From Felis catus (taxonomy: Eukaryota): 64,000 bases of DNA. Location: contig NC_058369.1 in the NCBI RefSeq assembly GCF_018350175.1, positions 18,290,001 through 18,354,000 of the forward strand, in the 5' to 3' direction. Within the stretch, counting starts at the first letter, position 1; each line of letters opens with the position of its first letter. Made by a program: the position numbers and the translations under genes. The notes under the pieces were generated by a model. It worked only from the letters and a program-made list of their open reading frames with translations, was not told the origin of the DNA and did no database searches. Positions 21,817 through 61,940 of the stretch are shown piece by piece.

Positions 21817-33037
<11,221 letters not shown>

Positions 33038-34450
33038 CCTGAAGAAGAGGGGAATCCAGATGAGGGGGGATGAGAGGTCTGTAGCCCAGGCCCACCCTAC
33101 CCCTCCCTTGGGGTCCCGTGCAGACCCTGCCCTCGTTAGTCCCTGGCAGATTCCCCACTCAATCCTCCCTCCGGCAGTCCCTCCACTAGCACAGTCCTGC
33201 GACTTTGAGCAAAGTTGAGAAGTACGGCAAGAAAGAAAGCGTGGAACGGATCTTGGGCAGGAGTGCAACACTGTGCAGAATTTCCTCTCCCACCTCTCCA
33301 GTAATGATCCTCATTCTAGAAACCAGACATAGTCCAGCTCACCTGCAAATCTTTATTGTGCTCCCTTGGTCTGGTTCAGACCAAGGGGCAGGGGGTTTGG
33401 TTTTAGGCCGCCACAGTTAGGGAGCGCACCAAGTAGGGGGCATGGCATGAGCAAAGAAAAGGAGTCTGATCTTCTGAGACTTCAAAAGGCCCACAAAACC
33501 CAGCCTTTCTCCCCAGCATTGTGAGTGCTGTGGAAGTCACCATCAACTAGGCTGTTCAGTTCCAGGGTTCCAGCATCAGCAGGTAAGTGAGAGAGCACAC
33601 ACGGAGGCATCAAGCTCCCCTCTTTAGGGATGTGGGAAGCTTTAGGCTGGCCTGGCCAGAGCCACAGGACAAGATGGAGGTAGGACGAGAGATGGAGAAA
33701 AGCCATCCCCTTGCCCAAGTCACTGTTCCAGGAGGCTCCACCTCCCTTAGTCACTACTGCAAGTATGCACAAGAAGTGGTGTCTCAGTTTCCCGGTGTGA
33801 AAATGGGTGCTGGGCCGCTGACAACAGAGGCAGGGAGTGAATCCAGATCTTATGGCTATTCATCCGTTCCGCACTTTCTGGCCTGCCAGGAGGCCAGAGC
33901 CCGGGCTTGGAATGCAAGCTGCCGGCGAGTGCCCCACCCAGGCCCCTGGGACCACAAGCGGACCGTGGACTCCGCAGGTCTATAAGGCCAGGCCCCTGTG
34001 GCTCTGAGCTGCCACAACTGTGCCCACTCTGTCTGGGGCCAAGTGGAGGGTACCCAGAGCTGTGGAACTGGGGGAAAAGCTGCAGGTTCTTCACAGGCAT
34101 CACCAGGCTTCTCAAGGAGAGTCTGAGCAGGGGGGCAGTCAATCTGATGGACTTACAGGGTCTCAGGAGGTTACTCCAGTTTTCTGAAGTAGTGGTCTCC
34201 AGTTACCCTGAGGGTCATGTAATCAACCTGAGGGGCTAGGGGTATTAGAGGTGACTCAATTTTAGATCACTCAGAAAAGGACCTATCAGTGTCAAAGGCA
34301 CTTGATGGCCTCTGTGAGTTTTACGTGATCTCTGGTTTCTCAAGGACAGATCACTGGAGGATATCATGGAGTCACATGGGGGTTACTCGAGGTCAGTAGG
34401 CACTCAGTGGGGTCCCTGGTCCCTCAAGGTCAGGAGATTCTTGGGTCAAA

Positions 34451-34511
34451 CTGGGATCATTCAGGTAGTCTGAGTTACTAGCTGGGATCATTCAGGAGTC
34501 TGTCTTACTAG
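34451..34511. repeat. ~31-bp imperfect tandem duplication
   Basis: ctgggatcattcaggtagtctgagttactag / ctgggatcattcaggagtctgtcttactag. Confidence 0.8.
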
Positions 34512-34526
34512 CTCCATACACCACAG

Positions 34527-37500
34527 TCAGCAGATGGCACATGTGTTTGCCCATAGCCACATGTGTTCAAGCAGCTTTGCTGCACTCTGTTCCAGGGCCC
34601 CAAGGATGACACCTGCTTGCTCAGTATCTGCTCATTCTGCACGAGGTGGTGCTCCAACCTTGAGGATCAGGTCATCTGAACCAGGTTCTGACCTTTGGCC
34701 TAATCTCTGACCCTGGTCCTCAATTCTGTCATGACCTTAACTCTGACCCCAGCCCTAAGTGAGCTCTAACCCTAATCAACATTTGAGCCCTGTTGTGAAC
34801 TTTGACCCCAGCCCTGATCCCTACAAGAATCTGGACCTGACCTGGACCCAGCCCTGACCCTCCTACACCATCCCTGTTCTGACTCTGACCTGTTCATCTG
34901 ACCCTGATCCCACTCCATACCCCACTCCACCATGGACCAGCCATGCACCTTTTAGCCAACTCTAGCTGTTAGGCACCCACTTCAGCAGCTCTTGGGCTCA
35001 GCTTGTGCCTGCTGTACCCACTCTCCTGCATCTTGCCCTGTGGCCACCAGGCTATGTGTGCCCTTCTGCAACTCTACCACGCCTAACTGGGCCATCTGCA
35101 ACTCCTAGAGCAGGACTTGAACCGAAAACCCACCCCACCTAGATCCTACTATTTCAGACAGATTGCTGCCCAAGGTTCCCGGGGGCAGAAGGGGGCTGAG
35201 ACTCTGCCTTAGCCCAGTATAGCCCAGTCCCAGCCTAAATCCCACCTCTGACACCTCAATGCCCAGTGTACCCATATCACCTTGCCCAGGCCCCCAGCCA
35301 TGCCCATGGCATGTACTGCTTGCTCTTCTGCCCTCTCAGCCTGCTGCTGACAAGGCCAAGTAGGTCTTGAAAGCCACAGCTGCACTGGACAGAGGCCCCA
35401 GGACTGGGGTCACATCCACTGCCACTGCCAGTATCATCCAGGCCAGGTGCCCTGCCACCTGGGGCAAAGGTCAAAGATCACAGGGAGGTCACAGCAGGGT
35501 AGCAACTAAGTAGGGTGCGCACATGGTCTGTGTATTTAGTAATGCCAGGGTATCATAGTGGTTCAAGCATCTCAGGGGGAGAATGGAGAAAACAGCAGAC
35601 ACTGAACAAGAGGTGTGAAGGAGCTGGGGGTAATGAGGCCTCCAGGCCTCGGAGTGTCTGTTTTGCTGACTGCAGTCCTGGTTCTGCAGCCCTTGTATGA
35701 CTTCCCACCTCAGCCAGCTGAACATCCAGTGCTTGGTCCTGGGCCCTAGCTGTCCCCCACCCCAACCCCTGAAGGGGACAGATGATCAGTTGGACATCCC
35801 TGTCCTCCCCATCCTCTGACCTCTGCCTCCAGTCTCCTGGCCCTTCACCAGGTCTGCTGTGCCTGATGGAGGACACCTTCAGCTCTGGGCAGTTCCTGGC
35901 CTATGGTGTCTGGTGCAGGGAGGGCACTCTGGATCTGACTCAGCAAGAGGGCAATGCTCACTGTCCCACCTTAGGGGAGGGGCACTGCCAGCCCATGCCA
36001 TGCACCAGCTGCACACTCACAGCATCTGCACCTTCATATGTAGGAACTGGAGTAGGAATCTTGGATATGAACTCGATTCCTGACCCAACAAACCCTGACT
36101 CTAACCTCTCACTGACCCTGCCTCTGACATGACTACATGTGCTGGGGGCTAATAAGAGCGAAGTATTAAATTTTCAGGAATTTTGTGAATTAGCTGATAA
36201 GTGGTAGGTAGACTAAAATCATGGTGGCTTTGCTCACACCATGCAAATTGATAAACACTACAAATCAGTTCCCTCTGACCTCCAACCAGCTGTTAAACAT
36301 TTAGGAGCATACTAGTGCTCCCATCTGACCCCTGGTTAGCCCTTATGAACATTTCTCATTCTGGAAGGAGTATCACAGCAGTGTTCTAGATGCCCACCTG
36401 CCCCTCCCCTCAGCTGTGAACAGACACACAACAAGCAGACATGTACCCAAGAGGAAACACTGGAGGATCTGCACAGTTGCTTGTAGAGGGGCTATGGTGG
36501 CCACACCCCAGGACCCCCTTACACGATGTCTCCCAGGCCTGGATTCCTGTGGAGCTTGCTGTGGCCTGAATTTGCTGCAGCTCGTAGGGGTGAGTCAGAT
36601 GTGGAATGTATCTCCTGCACCCCTATGACTCCCCGCTTGGCTCCCATGCATGGCCCCAATGGCTCTGTACTAGTTGGTTAATGCTGCCCTAGGATTGTGG
36701 CAGCTATATCAAGGCTATCGGAAGAGTTATGGGAAGCAACCAGAGCCCACTGGGTAGTGGCAGGGTCCCAGGGCAAGAGGCAACACCACAGGGTATCAGG
36801 AACATAGGCCAGTCCAGGTCCCCAACCCCTGCATTCCTGTAAACAAGCTAGGTGATCCAGTGAGAATTGTATGTCCCAGATATCCCCTATTGCCCTACAC
36901 CCAGGTTTTGGCTAGAAGAAAGTCCTCGCCTTGGCGAAACCCCCTATAGGGATCCATCTCTCCACCCACCACTTCAACTTTGACTAGGAGTCTCAGAAGC
37001 TATGGACACAACATCTGGATCCTGTCAACCAGCTTCATCAGTTTCAGCTCCCACATAGTTGCTCCTGTCCCTGGCTGGCCCATCCCCCACAGCAGCTGCT
37101 CTGTCCACCACTGGTCTCTTGGGCCTGTCCTAGGATGCTGTCTCATTCTCCAAATGTGGTCACAACCTGGGCTCCAAGCAGGGCCTCTTGGGAAAGCAGG
37201 CAGCTGAGGAGGCTTGGGCCTCAGCATCTGCAGGGGATGGCAGGGATGGATAGAGGGGTGGCTCAGGACTCCACTAGTTGAGGCAGGGTCAATTAGCCTT
37301 CTGGGTTTCCCCAGGTACATAAGCAAAAGCACCTGGCCCCTTCCTTCTGCCCTAGCCTAGCCCCTACCCTCACCTGCTGCCCATTCACCTGCTCACTAGG
37401 CCTCATCTTGGGCTCCTGTTGCCCTCTTGGGCCAGGCAAGCCCTTGACACAGTTTAGCTCCCAGGATAATTCTTCCAGATGTTCACACTGCCTCGTAACT

Positions 37501-40500
37501 CATGGCTCTCTTTCTGCCACAACCTGTCCTGTGGCCCACAGTGTCTGAGCCAAAGCAGTCACTTTCTTCCTGCAGGAAGATGTACTCTCCTTTATGATTC
37601 CTCACTCAGGAAAACCCACCTGACTCCCAGACCCAGGACGCAAGACAGGCCAACCTGAGACCCCCTGAATCCCCAACCCTGAGAAGCTAGCTGGAGACCT
37701 CCCCCTTACTGACCCAAGACCCCTGGCCTGAATCCAGCTATCCACTCTGTTAGTTGCTCCAGAGTCCCCACAATGGGTGAAGAAGATTCCAGGAGAGTCT
37801 GTGCCTGGTGGAGTACTGCCTCCAGGGCCTGTAGGTGTCCACCCTAGCCCTGGGCACCCCAGCCAGGCATCCCCTTGTGTAGGGGGGCCACCTCTTGGGC
37901 CACAGTTTCTAGCTGCAGCTGGAGCAGAGCTAGACGTTGGTCCCAGGAGGTGAAACAGGTAGGGCCTGGATACAAGACACAAACTCACAGGGCCAGACCA
38001 CCCCAAGACCTGGACCCCCAGGACTTAGGTTCCCATTAACCGAAGATCCCAGGGATCCCATCCCTACTAAGGCTCTAGTGTCCTATGACCCCAACCTATT
38101 TCTCAGACTCCTCACCTGGGGCAATTGGCTACTGTAATAGGTTTGCCATCAGGATGGTGGGCACACGGAGGGTCATGCTGTCTACAAAGTTGGGGCCAGA
38201 GCCAACTAGGAGAGGCCCCCAAGACTGTACAGTGGGGAGGAGCAGGCTAGGGGGCTCTCTGGGGACAAGTTGAGTGTCAGTGTCCTCTAACATTCTGGCT
38301 CTCTCCTCTCCCACACTGCCCTGAAAATATGGGCTCTAAGACACCAAACCTCTGACCATGCTGATGCTCCCACCTCGACTTCCTCACCTTCCTAACCCAG
38401 CCCAGCCTCTTGTTTAAACCAGTCGTCTCCACACACTCCCTCCCTCCCCTGAAAACCAAGTCTAAGCTTTGGTTTTCTCTTGCCCCTGCTCCTCCTGGAC
38501 ACTCATAGGCAACAAGGGGTCAGCTGGCTGGAAGCCCTGGCCAAGTTCAGCTTCAGCAGTGGTTTGGTCAAGGGCAACACAGAAGTGCCCAGATGGGAAT
38601 TCATGGCAGCCATTGAGGTGGGGGTGGCACAGGCAGAGGCCCTCCCCAGCAGAACACCTGAACTAACGTGGGGGCAGGGAAGGAGAGTCAACTCCTGACT
38701 CTTATCACTTGATCCCAACTCCCAGGCCCTACCTTGTACCCATTGCTGTAGGCATAGTCACAAGGCCTGTAGCCCAAAGAGTCACCGCTCAGACTCCAGA
38801 ACTCGGACTGTAAGAGAGAGCAAGTAGGTGGAGAAAGGACAGGAAGATCTGGGGCCTAGGAGGTCATATGCTGGGACTGCCTGTTGCAAGAGGAAGGGGA
38901 GTGAGCACAGGGCTTCAATGCTCCTCTGGCTGTAGCTGAGAGGGGGTGAGGAGACCTCAGTATACTCCTGCACAGCTTCATAAGAGGTAAGATGAGGATA
39001 CTGCAGAGGCTAAAGTAAAAGTTAAAGGATTTATGTTCAAGGAGAGGCAAGAAGTGGATGGAATTCTTTCTTGGACTGAGTCTTCCTCCAAATATGTTTG
39101 TTGCGAAACATCTTTAAACCCAGTGCACAATATGTTGTAACTTGCTTCATTGCTTTTCCTTTTATGTTTCCAAAGCTCCCACCTGAGGGCATATGCTGGT
39201 TCAGCTAGCTGAGGTGGTGTTGACCTTAGTAACCAGATCAAGGAGTAGAACCAACCCATGTGCAAGGCTCAGTCTAGAGTCACACTGATTATACAGCCTT
39301 ATACTTGTCAGCTGCTAGAAGCCTAGTGCCCAAAATCACGGTCAAATCAGAAGGTGGGGCAAGGCTTACCAGATAAAGTCTGCAGTCCCATCCAGAGACA
39401 AAGCGTTTGTAGTGACAGGCACTGCTGGAGGTATCACAGGCATGAGTGCCAGGGACCTGGCCTCAGGGTTAGTGTCTATGGGCTAGGGCACAGGGCTCGC
39501 AGGGTGCTATTGGGATTCCTGCAGGGATAGGTGCATGCATGTGTCATTAGAGCAGTGACTGGGGGCAGAGCAAGGACATGAGGGTTGGGTCTACTCTCAG
39601 GATAACTCACACTGACAACCTTCTGCCTGAGTGGGGCTTAAGCCACAGTGACCAGGCCGGCAGAGGTCACAGCACTGGCCCGACATGAACTCTACAGTGA
39701 CACTGCCCAGAGAGGAGACTGCGGGTCTTTCTGTGTGGGCATCACACAACCCCCTTCCAAAGTAGCCATAGAGTCACAGTCACAGGCTGAATCATGGGTC
39801 AGAAGTGAGGACAGAGTTAGGTCAGAGGTCACCATGGAGCTGAAGGATCAGGGTCAGAGGTGGGATTGGGGATTGGAAGGCTCACGTTTGCAAGAGTGAA
39901 GAGAATGGGGTTCCTCCTGGGGATCTCAGTGGAAGGGCTGGCAGAGTTCACAGTGGCACCCAGCTGTGTTGTGCTGACATGTATCACACACACCTCCAGT
40001 CACATTGCCAGATGCCAGATACAGGGCTATGTCAAAATGACAACTGTGGGCATGCCCATTACACTTGCATTCTGGGGCAGAACAAGGAAGATGGATATGG
40101 AGCGGGCTGACTTAGGCAATTATGGCCAGGCACAGAGGACACGGCACGTATCCTGCCAGGTGTGGGGGTGCCCAGGCTCTGCTGCATGCCATAGGTGGTA
40201 CTAACATAGGTCCTACCAATGCTCACAGTGGGTACCAACTGTGTGGTGATGGCAGATGCAAAGGCCACGCACCTGGCAGGGAGGAGAGCAAGATGAGTCT
40301 GCCCCAGTCCCCCAGCTTGCCCACCCCAGCAGCCACAGGATGCCTCTTTCATGGCGCTCACCATGCCTTTCATGTTGGCTGGGGCCTTAGCTGTGGGCCT
40401 GCACTCAGAGGCATGGCCATGGCATAGGCAGCTGCCTCTGGCCACAAGCTCCTAAAGGACATAGTAGAAGGGGTGTCTCTTTAGGCTCCTCCAGCAGCCT

Positions 40501-43091
40501 ATCACCCAGCGTGTGCAATTTGGAGTTCACATGGAGATTTGTCACATGAAAGAGTTCTGGAGACACAGACTGGGGACCTCAGGTGCACTGATCATTATCC
40601 CTCTATGGCTGGGATGGAATAGGGGTAGGGTTTCTTCTCTCTCTGCATCATTGCAGCCACCTCTCCCAGCATTCATGCTGTGGGACTCCCCCATACCTGC
40701 TCCTCTAGGCATACCATCTTAGGATGACCACAGCCTAATGGTGATAATTCTACCTCTGCACTGCTCCAACCATGACATCACTCCTGAGGTGAGACCTGCA
40801 CAATCCCACCTCTTCCTGGATACCCCATCCTGGCATTACTAGTTGAAAACTGCTTCCCCATTGCAGTTAACCATCCCATTCCCCAGTCTATCATCAAAAC
40901 TAGAAATCAGTTTACCATCCAGCCAAACCATATATGGTATTAGTTTGCTTATTTATCAAGTTTTTCTCATTTTCATGTCAGATCCAAGACACTTTATCTG
41001 CTCCCCACTGAACACTGCTCAGAAGACAGATGTCTGGCACACAGTGGAGCTCAATGGGCACTTGTTCAATGTACACATGGGACAGATGGGTCCATGGCTC
41101 CTTTCTGCTCCACAGCTTAAGTCAGTTACTGAACCAAGCTTCCTCTTATACCTCCCTTTGCTGAGTGTCTCTCTCCTGATCAGAAGAGCAAGCAAGACCT
41201 GCTTGGGAACCTAGCATGGGGGCTCAGGGCAAGTAGTTGGTAATAATCAGTTAAGGTGGGTGGAGAGTAGAGAAAAAGCCAGGTTGGGGTATGTCATGCT
41301 TTAGTACTCACCTGGCCTGACTCTGGGTTGCCCTGCTGGGTTATGGTTATGTGTCTTGTCTTTCAAGACTTGTTTTACAAGAAAGAGGTCACAACCCAGA
41401 GACACCCTGGTGCCACCTAGAGGCAGCTGCAGAGACGCCAGACACCAAGTAAGGCCAGGGTGATGAATCAGGATGAGGACTCATCAGGGTGATGAGTCAG
41501 GGGGACCAGGATAGGGGCTGTGATGGAGGCTCATAAAAGGGACAGTTATAAGGTACAGCGACAGGTGCAGAAATGGGGTACATTGTTGATAGCTGGCATA
41601 GAAAGTAGTGATGGGAACCACAAAGGGGTCCCACAAAGAATTTGTGATGGGGCAGAGATAGAAACTGCCAGTCCCTATACACTGGGCATAGGTATGGGGA
41701 ACAATGATGGGACAGGAAAGGGGGGCCATATTAGGTCCATAATAGAGGACCATGATGGGATAGAGCCAGGGAATAATGCTGGGGGACGGAGCTGGCTTGC
41801 CTCCCACCATACCTCACTGGTGTACACACCCAAGCAGGACCTCACCTCCCTGCATTATCTGGCTGTCCTGACATGCAAGAAACACAGGATTGGCTGTGGA
41901 GAGGATTACCCTGAATCCTGGGATTGTTTGGGTTCTCCATTAAAATGGCTGGGTCCAGAACTTTGAAAATAACCTGGAAGAAGCAAACCTGAGCTTCTGG
42001 CTTCACCCCAGGGCCCAACCTCCCTTCCTCTAGGTTGACCTTGCCCTCAGCAGAAGGCTCAATGTTGGAGTAATGCTGGTCACAAACCAGCCCTGTTTCT
42101 GTGGCCAGGGGTGGGAGGGATCCCAGGAAAGAGGCCTGAGCAGCTGTAGGCAAAGTATCAGCATACATGCCGAGTGGCCATGGTCCGCTGAATGCTCCAG
42201 AAGCAGAGTTGCCAGGCAGAATGTCTGAGGACAAGAGGGGGTCCTTGGGTCACCAGAGGGAAGCATCACTGGTGGCTGTGAGGTCAGGAGGCACAGAGCA
42301 AGCCTTTAGGCTGGGGCATGATGAACGTCATGATGAGGTGGGTAATGTAGAAGGCACTCTCTAGGTCCAGCTGGATGGTGACGTTCTCAACACCTGTAAC
42401 CACAAGGGCCAATCAGAGTGGCTGAGCCCTGACCCTAGACCTGCACACATGGGCACACGGGTACCATCACCTCTCTCTGCCGGCCATCAGGTCTTGTTTC
42501 TTCCACGACCACTCCAAATCACATTCTCAGTGCCATGGCCTCCCTGATCCCAAATGTCACAAAAGAAGGAATTCTCAGATTCCTGCAAGAGGTACGTGGT
42601 TGGCCCCCAAGCCCCAAATTTCACAGCACAGGCCTCCCCCTCCCAGCAATGATCTGAACCCCCACAAAGCCAAACCTGCCCAGGAAAACCCAGAGATACC
42701 ATCTCCAGAGCCCTCACCCTCCTCCCCACCTGGAGGTGACTGACAATGCAGTAGGGCTCAGAGACCACAGGAGGACAAAGTTCTGGCCATGGCCAACAAT
42801 CAAATTGCCAGTAGGTGGGTAGCAGCTGCCACTTAAGCATTCAGGTAGGGGAAGTGTGTCTGACACCTCCTCAATTGTTCTGGAAGCCTGGACTGGGAAG
42901 GACAGCATCTGAACAGAGATCCTAAGGGTTCCCCCACCTCATTCTGCCCCATAAGAGGCCTGGAGATTTTTTCTCCTGCTCTGGATGGCTCTCAGGGAAA
43001 GCCAACCTCTCACCCGCTGGTGGCAGAAGCAGAACTGAAAGGAGCTGCAGACTGGAGAGGAGGCCTAGCCAGGCTGGGGGTCCTGGGCCAT
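34527..43091 (-). pseudogene. LAMB2P1: Unprocessed laminin beta-2-like pseudogene (positional counterpart of human LAMB2P1/LAMB2L)
   Basis: Decayed exons: 43091-43014 (signal peptide, frameshift), 42892-42730 ([26 protein letters not shown]), 42582-~42465, 42393-42320 ([23 protein letters not shown]), 42224-42040, 41973-41910, 40556-40362, 40272-40152, 40071-39886 ([21 protein letters not shown]), 39786-39611, 39482-39370, 38807-38740, 38657-38507, ~38220-38116, ~37990-37728, 37569-~37380, 37227-~36975, ~36800-36520, ~36037-35849 (EGADAVSVQLV), 35768-~35630, 35458-35281, 35104-34949, 34658-34527 (..NTCAIC*). Many stops and frameshifts. Confidence 0.9.
36136..36316 (+). mobile_element. MER63-like hAT DNA transposon fossil
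   Basis: ttaaattttcaggaattttgtga..., aaacactacaaatcag, and gttaaacattta..agca..c.a.tg terminus resemble MER63A as recalled. Confidence 0.65.
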
Positions 43092-44623: not shown

Positions 44624-46222
<1,599 letters not shown>

Positions 46223-60510: not shown

Positions 60511-61308
60511 AACAGGGACAGAGGTCCCTGGGGCATTTGCTTTGGCCCAGCTGGGAGCCAGAGAATCATGCCCTATCCCCAGGCAGAGAAAGACCACCTC
60601 CCAAACCCCCAGACCTCAATAGAAATCTCTCCCAAGACCATCAACCTTGCCTTTGTGCCTGGTCTCTGCCCCCAGAGTCCCCAGTCTCTAGTCAGTCATT
60701 CAGCTTCTCCTGCTGTAGACTTGAATGAAGTGTCTAATCTGATGAGTTCAGGCTTTCCTGGGTTGGGGTATGAGCAGTGGCTGACAGCAGGTTCCTAGAG
60801 TAAAGGCTGGGGCTAGATCCATCCCAGATCCCTGAACCAGATTCTTCAGGGTGGAGCCTGTGGTGTGTGTCTTTAAAAAGCTCCCCTACAGGAGATCCTG
60901 CCTTAGACACCTGGTGCCGGTTTTCCAGGTAGATTGAAAACTCCATGAAGGTGGGAAGCCAGCCAGCCTTACCTTCCATTCCTCATAAAGCAAGCTGACA
61001 CGACAGAGATTAAAAACCCAGGACCCTTTTAGAAAAAAAAATAGGAAAAAATCTTCAGAATCTAGAACTAGGGAAAGAGTTCTTAGACTTGACACCAAAA
61101 GCAAGAGCAATAAAAGAAAAAATTGACAAATTGGACCTCATCAAAAAATTTTTTCAAGCTTTGCTCTGTGAAAGTTTATGTAAAGAGGATGAAAAGACAA
61201 GCTACAGACTGGGAGAAAATATTTGCAAACCAAATATCCAATGAAGGAATAATATCTAGAATATATAGAGAATTCTCACAATTCAACAGTAAAATAACAA
61301 TCCAATTA

Positions 61309-61940
61309 TGGGAATGCAAGCTGGTGCAGCCACTCCGGAAAACAGTATGAAGTTTCCTCAAAAAACTAAAAATAGAACTACTCTACAACCACTACTAGGT
61401 ATTTATCCCCAGGATACAGGTGTGCTGTTTCGAAGGGACACATGCATCCCCATGTTTATAGCAGCACTATCAACAATAGCCAAAGTATGGAAAGAGCCCA
61501 AATGTCCATCGATGGATGAATGGATAAAGAAGATGTGGTATATATATATACAATGGAGTATTACTCAGCAATCAAGAAGAATGAAATCTTGCCATTTGCA
61601 ACAACGTGGATGGAACTGGAGGGTATTATGCTAAGTGAAATTAGTCAGAGAAAGACAAAAATCATATGACTTCACTCATATGAGGATGTTAAGAGACAAA
61701 ACAGATGAACATAAGGGAAGGGAAGGGAAACAAAAATAATATAAAAACAGGGAGGGGGACAAAACAGAAGAGACTCATAAATATGGAGAACAAACAGAGG
61801 GTTACTGGAGGGGTTGTGGGAGGGGGGATGGGCTAAATGGGTAAGGGGCACTAAGGAATCTACTCCTGAAATCATTGTTGCACTATATGCTAACTAATTT
61901 GGATGTAAATTTAAAAAAATAAAAAGTAAAATTAAAAAAA
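61309..61940 (+). mobile_element. Younger carnivore L1, 5'-truncated, nested in the older L1
   Basis: WECKLVQPL..., MFIAALSTIAKVWKEPKCPSMDEWIKKMWYI; A tail; target-site duplication aatccaatta at 61299-61308 and 61941-61950. Confidence 0.9.

Follow-up and report, generated by a model that had tools for sequence, protein, structure and literature searches.

A decayed laminin beta gene beside LAMB2 in the cat genome is probably the remnant of LAMB2L

Which gene left the broken laminin-like exons that lie next to LAMB2 in the cat? The DNA in question, here called the remnant, sits in a 64,000-nucleotide stretch of Felis catus (assembly GCF_018350175.1, contig NC_058369.1, positions 18,290,001 to 18,354,000 of the forward strand), which is the window referred to throughout; in it, the remnant adjoins LAMB2. 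Durkin et al. are said to have described in 1999 a human unprocessed pseudogene, LAMB2P1/LAMB2L, upstream of LAMB2 and similar to exons 8-12, and the human QARS1-USP19-LAMB2-CCDC71 block presumably holds this LAMB2P1 upstream of LAMB2. Our answer, to which we give a rough probability of 0.88, is that the cat remnant is a dead, unprocessed orthologue of LAMB2L in which stops, frameshifts, and the disappearance of exons 15-23 have broken the gene, its inactivation likely dating from near the start of the placental radiation.

The parent gene of the remnant

Twenty-three exon-like segments, collinear on the minus strand from 43091 down to 34527, match laminin beta exons 1-14 and 24-32 in a spliced, frameshift-aware alignment, and 19 of them score above shuffled controls; an earlier sequence-only reading of this DNA had proposed about 23 decayed, collinear exons, and that count stands. 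The profile aligner was custom-made, and its profiles were built from 26 LAMB2L, 22 LAMB2, and 8 LAMB1 proteins. Exon-by-exon scoring covered 33.1-44.6 kb with 40 shuffles, tests of single intervals used 300, and the family profile for exon 14 used 500. No shuffle (0/40) reached the scores of exons 2, 4-7, 9-13, 24, 29, 30, and 32 in the 33.1-44.6 kb scan, whereas position and splice sites, not score, support exons 1, 14, 26, and 31, which are thus suggestive. The LAMB2L profile aligns from column 28 to its last column along the remnant; the LAMB2 and LAMB1 profiles end after exon 13. With blastn, LAMB2 detects four clear blocks alone in the remnant region (exons 2, 4, 9, and 10), and a loose six-frame comparison of the same sequences gave mostly noise.

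The coiled coil is the most telling part. The segment at 34.4-38.1 kb scores 58.6 bits with the LAMB2L profile, against a mean of 21.1 (±2) and a maximum of 26.3 bits in 60 shuffles, and against a maximum of 39.7 bits in a genomic control of 52 tiles. A LAMB2L profile weighted toward wombat raised the score to 79.2 bits (0/40 shuffles). As a whole, the segment is not significant with the LAMB2 profile (23.5 bits; shuffle maximum 28.6), and the LAMB1 profile gives 20.7 bits. The sequence-only reading had compared these exons with LAMB2, which was not the right comparator. Its quoted motifs were all located, TCFTSWDQ near 37960, EGADAVSVQLV from 36035, RAEGVLHQAQ near 35880, and LEHHLVQNEQIL...NTCAIC* ending at 34527. 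The terminal Cys aligns not with the NTC of LAMB2 but with LAMB2L, the remnant ending in ...ANTCAIC* and LAMB2L in ...ANAYATC*.

Phylogenetic placement agrees. In a tree of 831 columns and 24 rows, the remnant is sister to sauropsid LAMB2L (support 97/94) within a LAMB2L clade (100/99), and the approximately unbiased (AU) test rejects a clade of the remnant with LAMB2 (p=9.5e-7). Diagnostic sites outside exon 9 match LAMB2L at 54 positions and LAMB2 at 16, and two sets of exons separately reject placental LAMB2, exons 11-13 at p=0.006 and exons 2, 3, 5, and 6 at p=0.014. A separate, additional beta chain, as had been proposed, is what the position of the remnant in the LAMB2L clade and outside LAMB2 implies. 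Collinear coiled-coil similarity does exist at 34.5-38 kb and the remnant does not nest in carnivore LAMB2; the sequence-only reading had named the opposite of either as fatal to it. Its interpretation is supported in a corrected form: the middle third has been deleted, and the gene appears to be kin to LAMB4 and LAMB3 and not a LAMB2 duplicate.

LAMB2L itself is obscured by its names. A LAMB2 exon 7 query returned, among the 120 matches listed, turtle and tinamou proteins ~46% identical to LAMB2 and ending ANAYATC, and a turtle coiled-coil query gave 57 matches, to turtles, alligator, birds, lizards, snakes, an anchovy, a ray, and two bird LAMB3 proteins; the full HMMER search with the same query added LAMB2L members from frog and shark. 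In databases, LAMB2L proteins are variously called beta-1, beta-1-like, beta-2, beta-2-like, and beta-4-like, chicken LAMB2L XP_015148809.1 (P0131) being a beta-2, yet they form one clade.

The deeper origin of that clade was sought in a family tree rooted with Ciona and mussel, from which the conversion-prone exons 4, 7, 8, and 9 were left out. It divides LAMB1 and LAMB2 (91/93) from LAMB2L, LAMB4, LAMB3, and a lamprey chain (94/99); a 28-row tree agrees, and the AU test rejects a LAMB2 plus LAMB2L clade (p=1.2e-4). At 76.9-77.1 Mb of the same contig, LAMB1 has LAMB4 as its immediate upstream neighbor, both genes being on one strand. The LAMB4-LAMB1 arrangement mirrors LAMB2L-LAMB2, and together with the rooted tree this suggests that LAMB2L came from one old tandem pair, a LAMB4/2L/3-type gene beside a LAMB1/2-type gene, which would have been copied as a block to give LAMB4-LAMB1 and LAMB2L-LAMB2, presumably in the early vertebrate genome duplications. 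Ancestrally, LAMB2L would have encoded a complete beta chain (LN-LE-LF-LE-coiled coil) that joined alpha and gamma chains; that it formed heterotrimers is inferred from its family membership.

Wombat laminin beta-2-like, partial (XP_027725184.1; P0335) is a 168 amino acid open frame over three exons without a stop and, in the HMMER search with the turtle coiled-coil query, the best match to the remnant coiled coil among the 150 representatives listed. It aligns to remnant exons 28-30 at 65 bits (maximum of 200 shuffles, 28.5). Searched against the cat genome (2.43 Gb), it places the remnant locus at the top of the seven matches listed (E 6.5e-4), with LAMB2 at E 0.23; exon 30 by itself, compared with wombat without gaps, gave no significant match, whereas the gapped three-exon alignment was significant. 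Since the 168 codons are open across three exons, marsupials likely still encode a LAMB2L chain.

Exons, decay, and time of loss

All of the segments below are on the minus strand. The likely exon 1 (43014..43091) has an ATG, a 1-nucleotide frameshift, a hydrophobic signal-peptide-like stretch (mean hydropathy 2.07 over 12 amino acids), and a phase-1 GT donor, the only one of four GT[AG]AG donors between exon 2 and the neighboring CCDC71 that follows a strongly hydrophobic in-frame stretch; its profile score is not significant (191/300 shuffles reach it). The LN domain starts in exon 2 (42730..42908; two frameshifts, 65.6 bits, AG/GT) and continues through exon 3 (42471..42582; one stop, 1/300 shuffles in its own interval, AG/GT), exon 4 (42320..42393; donor mutated to AT, 53.1 bits, Pfam Laminin_N E 8.7e-5, below the curated cut-off), exon 5 (42040..42224; two frameshifts, one stop, 79.4 bits), and exon 6 (41910..41973; 41.6 bits, AG/GT), to end in exon 7 (40362..40556; one frameshift, one stop, 102.1 bits), which also begins LE1. 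The LE repeats occupy exon 8 (LE1, 40151..40272; one stop, donor mutated, 35.9 bits, 0/300 shuffles in its own interval), exon 9 (LE2, 39886..40071; one stop, Pfam EGF_laminin over the cut-off, 120 bits with LAMB2L vs. 132 with LAMB2), exon 10 (LE3, 39611..39786; three frameshifts, 67.1 bits with LAMB2L vs. 79.9 with LAMB2), exon 11 (LE4, 39370..39482; two stops, 31.6 bits, AG/GT), exon 12 (LE4/LE5, 38740..38807; 35.1 bits), and exon 13 (38503..38657; 68.7 bits with LAMB2L vs. 38.3 with LAMB2, 3' end uncertain), where LE5 is followed by an extension found in LAMB2L but not in LAMB2. The sequence-only reading had listed four exon lengths as identical to LAMB2; this is true of exons 4, 6, and 11 (74, 64, and 113 nucleotides), but exon 8 measures 122 at the homologous end, not 121. 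A 171 amino acid frame from a Logan record (P0001) was found by protein search to be 72% identical to the frame spanning exon 5 and its introns, and is probably the same pseudogene in another mammal.

The LN domain and LE repeats are thus present, exons 2-13 scoring above shuffles, and two of the eight pieces submitted gave Pfam EGF_laminin or Laminin_N matches. All 12 AG acceptors of exons 2-13 are retained and most splice dinucleotides survive; all 18 introns of the global alignment lie at LAMB2 positions, which the aligner favors. The 519 codons of exons 2-13 nevertheless contain eight frameshifts and seven stops, and 7 of 45 invariant Cys residues have been lost.

Then the middle is missing. 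Exons 15-23, which encode the second LE array and all but the start of the LF domain (~510 amino acids, 1534 coding nucleotides in LAMB2), should lie between exons 14 and 24, a span of 4210 bp in LAMB2; here exon 13 and the first clear match to exon 24 lie only 533 bp apart (the gap at 37970..38502, to which no strand is assigned), and most of LE13 is missing as well. None of exons 15-23 scored above shuffles in that gap, 46-258 of 300 shuffles reaching each score. A possible remnant of exon 14, the LF start, lies at 38116..38278 and ends at a GT donor (27/500 shuffles with the family profile, 127/300 with LAMB2L); it is suggestive at most, and the LF (IV type B) domain and second LE array are otherwise absent from the remnant. 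Displaced or inverted LF exons within the window were considered and rejected, the LF profile matching LAMB2 only across 16 tiles, and at first-look sensitivity, Pfam PF21199 finds the LF domain only in LAMB1, LAMB2, and LAMB4 genome-wide. Because the 23 segments are exons 1-14 plus 24-32, the continuity "from signal peptide to terminal Cys" in the sequence-only reading was overstated.

The C-terminal coiled coil resumes in order through exons 24-32, with the terminal Cys retained and the L-beta knob decayed. The 3' part of exon 24 (37728..37984; one stop, GC donor, 44.5 bits with LAMB2L) is invisible to the LAMB2 profile and matches turtle P0094 in tblastn at E 6e-5. It is followed by exon 25 (37389..37569; 4/300 shuffles, AG/GT), the likely exon 26 (36978..37227; 29/300 shuffles, AG acceptor, length 250 vs. 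242), exon 27 with the decayed knob and more coiled coil (36447..36836; 0/300 shuffles, AG/GT), exon 28 (35849..36037; 1/300 shuffles), which is the best genome-wide match of wombat P0335, exon 29 (35626..35768; 0/300 shuffles, 3' boundary uncertain) and exon 30 (35281..35458; 178 nucleotides vs. 177 in LAMB2, 0/300 shuffles for the 3' part, AG/GT), both of which align with wombat, the likely exon 31 (34949..35104; 33/300 shuffles, AG/GT, 156 vs. 160 nucleotides), and exon 32 with the terminal Cys and stop codon (34527..34660; one frameshift, 0/300 shuffles). A 30-31-bp tandem repeat of about two copies lies at 34430-34513, immediately past that stop codon.

With ancestral introns, several disabling mutations, and no intact copy found elsewhere (bird and wombat LAMB2L queries gave no better locus in the genome, both results being floors), the remnant is a unitary unprocessed pseudogene. 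Among family-invariant codons of exons 2-13, 156/206 are retained, which puts the neutral change since the gene was lost at d=0.144 substitutions per site (0.12-0.18), or d=0.169 with less strictly chosen sites. Set against an approximate calibration, a d of 0.14-0.17 from this one placental genome points to loss of LAMB2L near the placental radiation. Branch lengths are 0.38 for the therian stem, 0.86 for wombat, and 0.9 for the remnant, vs. 0.12-0.2 for LAMB2 tips; because these exceed what decay can explain, the therian chain seems to have evolved rapidly while still coding, and marsupials likely kept the gene.

The absence of exons 15-23 might have preceded the death of the gene, the mammalian chain having been remodeled to a short, beta-3-like form (LN, five LE, coiled coil). 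What is missing forms one unbroken block, and it corresponds roughly to the parts that LAMB3, a member of the same lineage, lacks; moreover, the therian chain was fast-evolving and shares the shortening of exon 28 with wombat. However, in LAMB1, LAMB2, and LAMB4, the phase is 0 at the ends of exons 13 and 14 but 1 at the start of exon 24, so a clean exon 13/14-to-24 join would be out of frame, and we take the deletion as damage; in addition, the possible exon 14 remnant would leave a partial LF domain, and exon 24 itself seems to be cut at its 5' end. We consider remodeling improbable, and hold the same of its fuller form, in which a fifth therian beta chain shed the LF domain and second LE array while working, like beta-3, and is still made by marsupials but was lost by placentals near their radiation. 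Deletion of exons 15-23 was more likely a part of the decay, or the inactivating lesion itself.

A different proposal is that the locus, its coding function gone, now acts through a non-coding RNA or helps to regulate LAMB2. Human LAMB2P1 was measured as a long non-coding RNA in HEK293T cells (PMC6501185), a LAMB2L probe gave low signal in human tissue (PMC4224499), and most splice dinucleotides of the remnant survive. Two-base splice-site survival is, however, expected at d ~0.15, and the region is CpG-poor; such a second role is unlikely, and the remnant offers no function in cat.

Exchange with LAMB2, and the neighboring genes

One exon does not follow the rest. Exon 9 alone nests in placental LAMB2 (94/85), its diagnostic sites favoring LAMB2 by 4:1 vs. 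16:54 elsewhere, and it has placental-type residues at exon positions 6, 9, and 24; its DNA is 85% identical to LAMB2 over 146 bp and 75% identical to LAMB1 over 110 bp. We slightly favor the idea that LAMB2 sequence replaced the 5' part of exon 9 by gene conversion, which would have happened after the marsupial split. Four-fold sites around exons 8-10 show no excess of identity to LAMB2 (6/22), most of LAMB2 exon 9 being N in the window.

Similar patterns occur between the intact genes of other animals. LAMB2 and LAMB2L of emu (P0035/P0128) are 98% identical in exon 8, those of two related turtles (P0045/P0043) are 96% identical in exons 4 and 7, and the emu, turtle, and anole (P0091/P0136) pairs all show much higher identity in exons 4, 7, 8, and 9 than in their other exons. 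This points to repeated gene conversion between tandem LAMB2 and LAMB2L in other lineages, and because of such exchange with the LAMB2 neighbor, exons 4 and 7-9 should be used with caution in judging orthology.

A tandem duplication of LAMB2 within mammals, followed by decay, is what the name "LAMB2 pseudogene 1" suggests. This origin would fit the adjacency of the remnant to LAMB2 on the same strand with the same intron positions, the higher LAMB2 scores of exons 4, 9, and 10, and the nesting of exon 9, but the AU test on the whole remnant, the separate rejections by exons 11-13 and by exons 2, 3, 5, and 6, the invisibility of the coiled coil to the LAMB2 profile, and four-fold sites that look saturated with respect to LAMB2 (20/62, exons 2-7) leave it next to no chance, and on these sequence comparisons it is largely refuted.

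Several observations weigh against the view of the remnant as a LAMB2L orthologue lost late, with a marsupial survivor and a converted exon 9. In the 831-column tree it is a long branch (1.28) of odd composition, and the two deep branches of the family tree fall slightly below starred support. The join of remnant and wombat (95/91) was flagged as two long branches meeting, and the wombat record is a 168 amino acid partial prediction. No full-length mammalian LAMB2L appeared among the 57 matches or the 150 representatives listed; the 57-match search, though, also missed amphibians and most fish, and because of this the absence of mammals from it says little. As to the date, 68 coiled-coil sites give d=0.27 (0.19-0.37), alignment bias lowers d, and everything depends on a rough calibration of ~0.15-0.2 neutral substitutions per site from the boreoeutherian ancestor to a laurasiatherian tip. 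For exon 9, the AU test does not reject placement with LAMB2L (p=0.10; p=0.14 for exons 8 and 9 together), the Fisher test (p=0.016) was made post hoc, exon 9 being one of 19 exons, and intron similarity between the remnant and LAMB2 was significant in 0/15 pairs (best p=0.08).

The downstream neighbor, LAMB2, is intact at 21817..33037 on the minus strand, with 32 coding exons, 1801 amino acids, and no stop; its exon 9 is partly N in the window. It is 85-91% identical to most full-length placental LAMB2 proteins, the top identities being deer (90.6%) and takin (90.3%). Upstream of the remnant, a long single open reading frame on the minus strand (44624..46186), which we take to be CCDC71, contains Ala/Lys-rich tandem repeats of 21-54 bp at 44965-45204. 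One of the 52 control tiles in the coiled-coil test gave 39.7 bits with the LAMB2L profile and 48.6 with LAMB2; our guess is that it reflects this Ala/Lys-rich frame. At the AT-rich end of the window, a frame at 61293-61634 presumably corresponds to the end of LINE-1 ORF2.

The remnant among laminin beta genes

By the count of reviews, mammals have three or four laminin beta chains, one review giving beta1-3 (PMC11260871). Reports of an additional beta chain in chicken go back to 1995-1998 (cited in PMC2185082), lamb2l is among the zebrafish fin-fold laminins (PMC4302845), and a recent fish paper treats lamb2l as a teleost extra and places it next to lamb2 (PMC9504374). Our literature search found no paper tracing the full extent of the remnant or its coiled-coil exons, its marsupial link, or its date of loss; Durkin 1999, Sztal 2011, and Fahey & Degnan 2012 lay outside that search and may state the orthology or the LAMB4 kinship. 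Laminin is not mentioned in the text or the one searched supplement file of PMC10195156, PMC7525820 contains nothing that bears on the remnant, and PMC5352804 proved a false match. A pseudogene in human and intact genes in birds and fish were known; this analysis adds the extent of the remnant, its true parent gene, a likely survivor in marsupials, the deletion, and an approximate time of loss.

If this account is right, LAMB2L belongs to jawed vertebrates at large, probably survives in marsupials, and disappeared late from the placental lineage. The name "LAMB2 pseudogene" would then be misleading because the gene is kin to LAMB4, and the human locus of that name would record the true loss of a gene, one open to dating and to being tied to a tissue. 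Extra laminin trimers would be predicted in marsupial basement membranes.

Compared with human LAMB2P1, the cat remnant has the same position upstream of LAMB2, and its best-kept exons are 7-10; it differs from the human pseudogene as reportedly described in comprising 23 segments that include the coiled coil, and in having LAMB2L, not LAMB2, as its apparent source. LAMB4 and LAMB3 belong to the same deep lineage as LAMB2L but form separate, fully supported clades. LAMB4 upstream of LAMB1 is the mirror image of the remnant upstream of LAMB2 but, unlike the remnant, its 26 exons recovered from the cat genome have no stop or frameshift, as is also true of the 32 of LAMB1. The wombat fragment has the highest identity to the remnant, 41% over 115 columns of exons 28-30, and a shortening of ~7 residues in exon 28 is common to both, whereas the 168 amino acid wombat record is an open frame and the remnant is broken. 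Finally, the LAMB2L proteins, teleost lamb2l and the beta-2-like chains of turtles, alligator, birds, and squamates (P0075, P0124, P0128, P0131), fall in the same clade as the remnant and have in common with it the C-terminal motif and the extension after LE5; the intact proteins run to ~1820-1900 amino acids with LF and 13 LE matches, whereas the remnant has stops and frameshifts and lacks exons 15-23.

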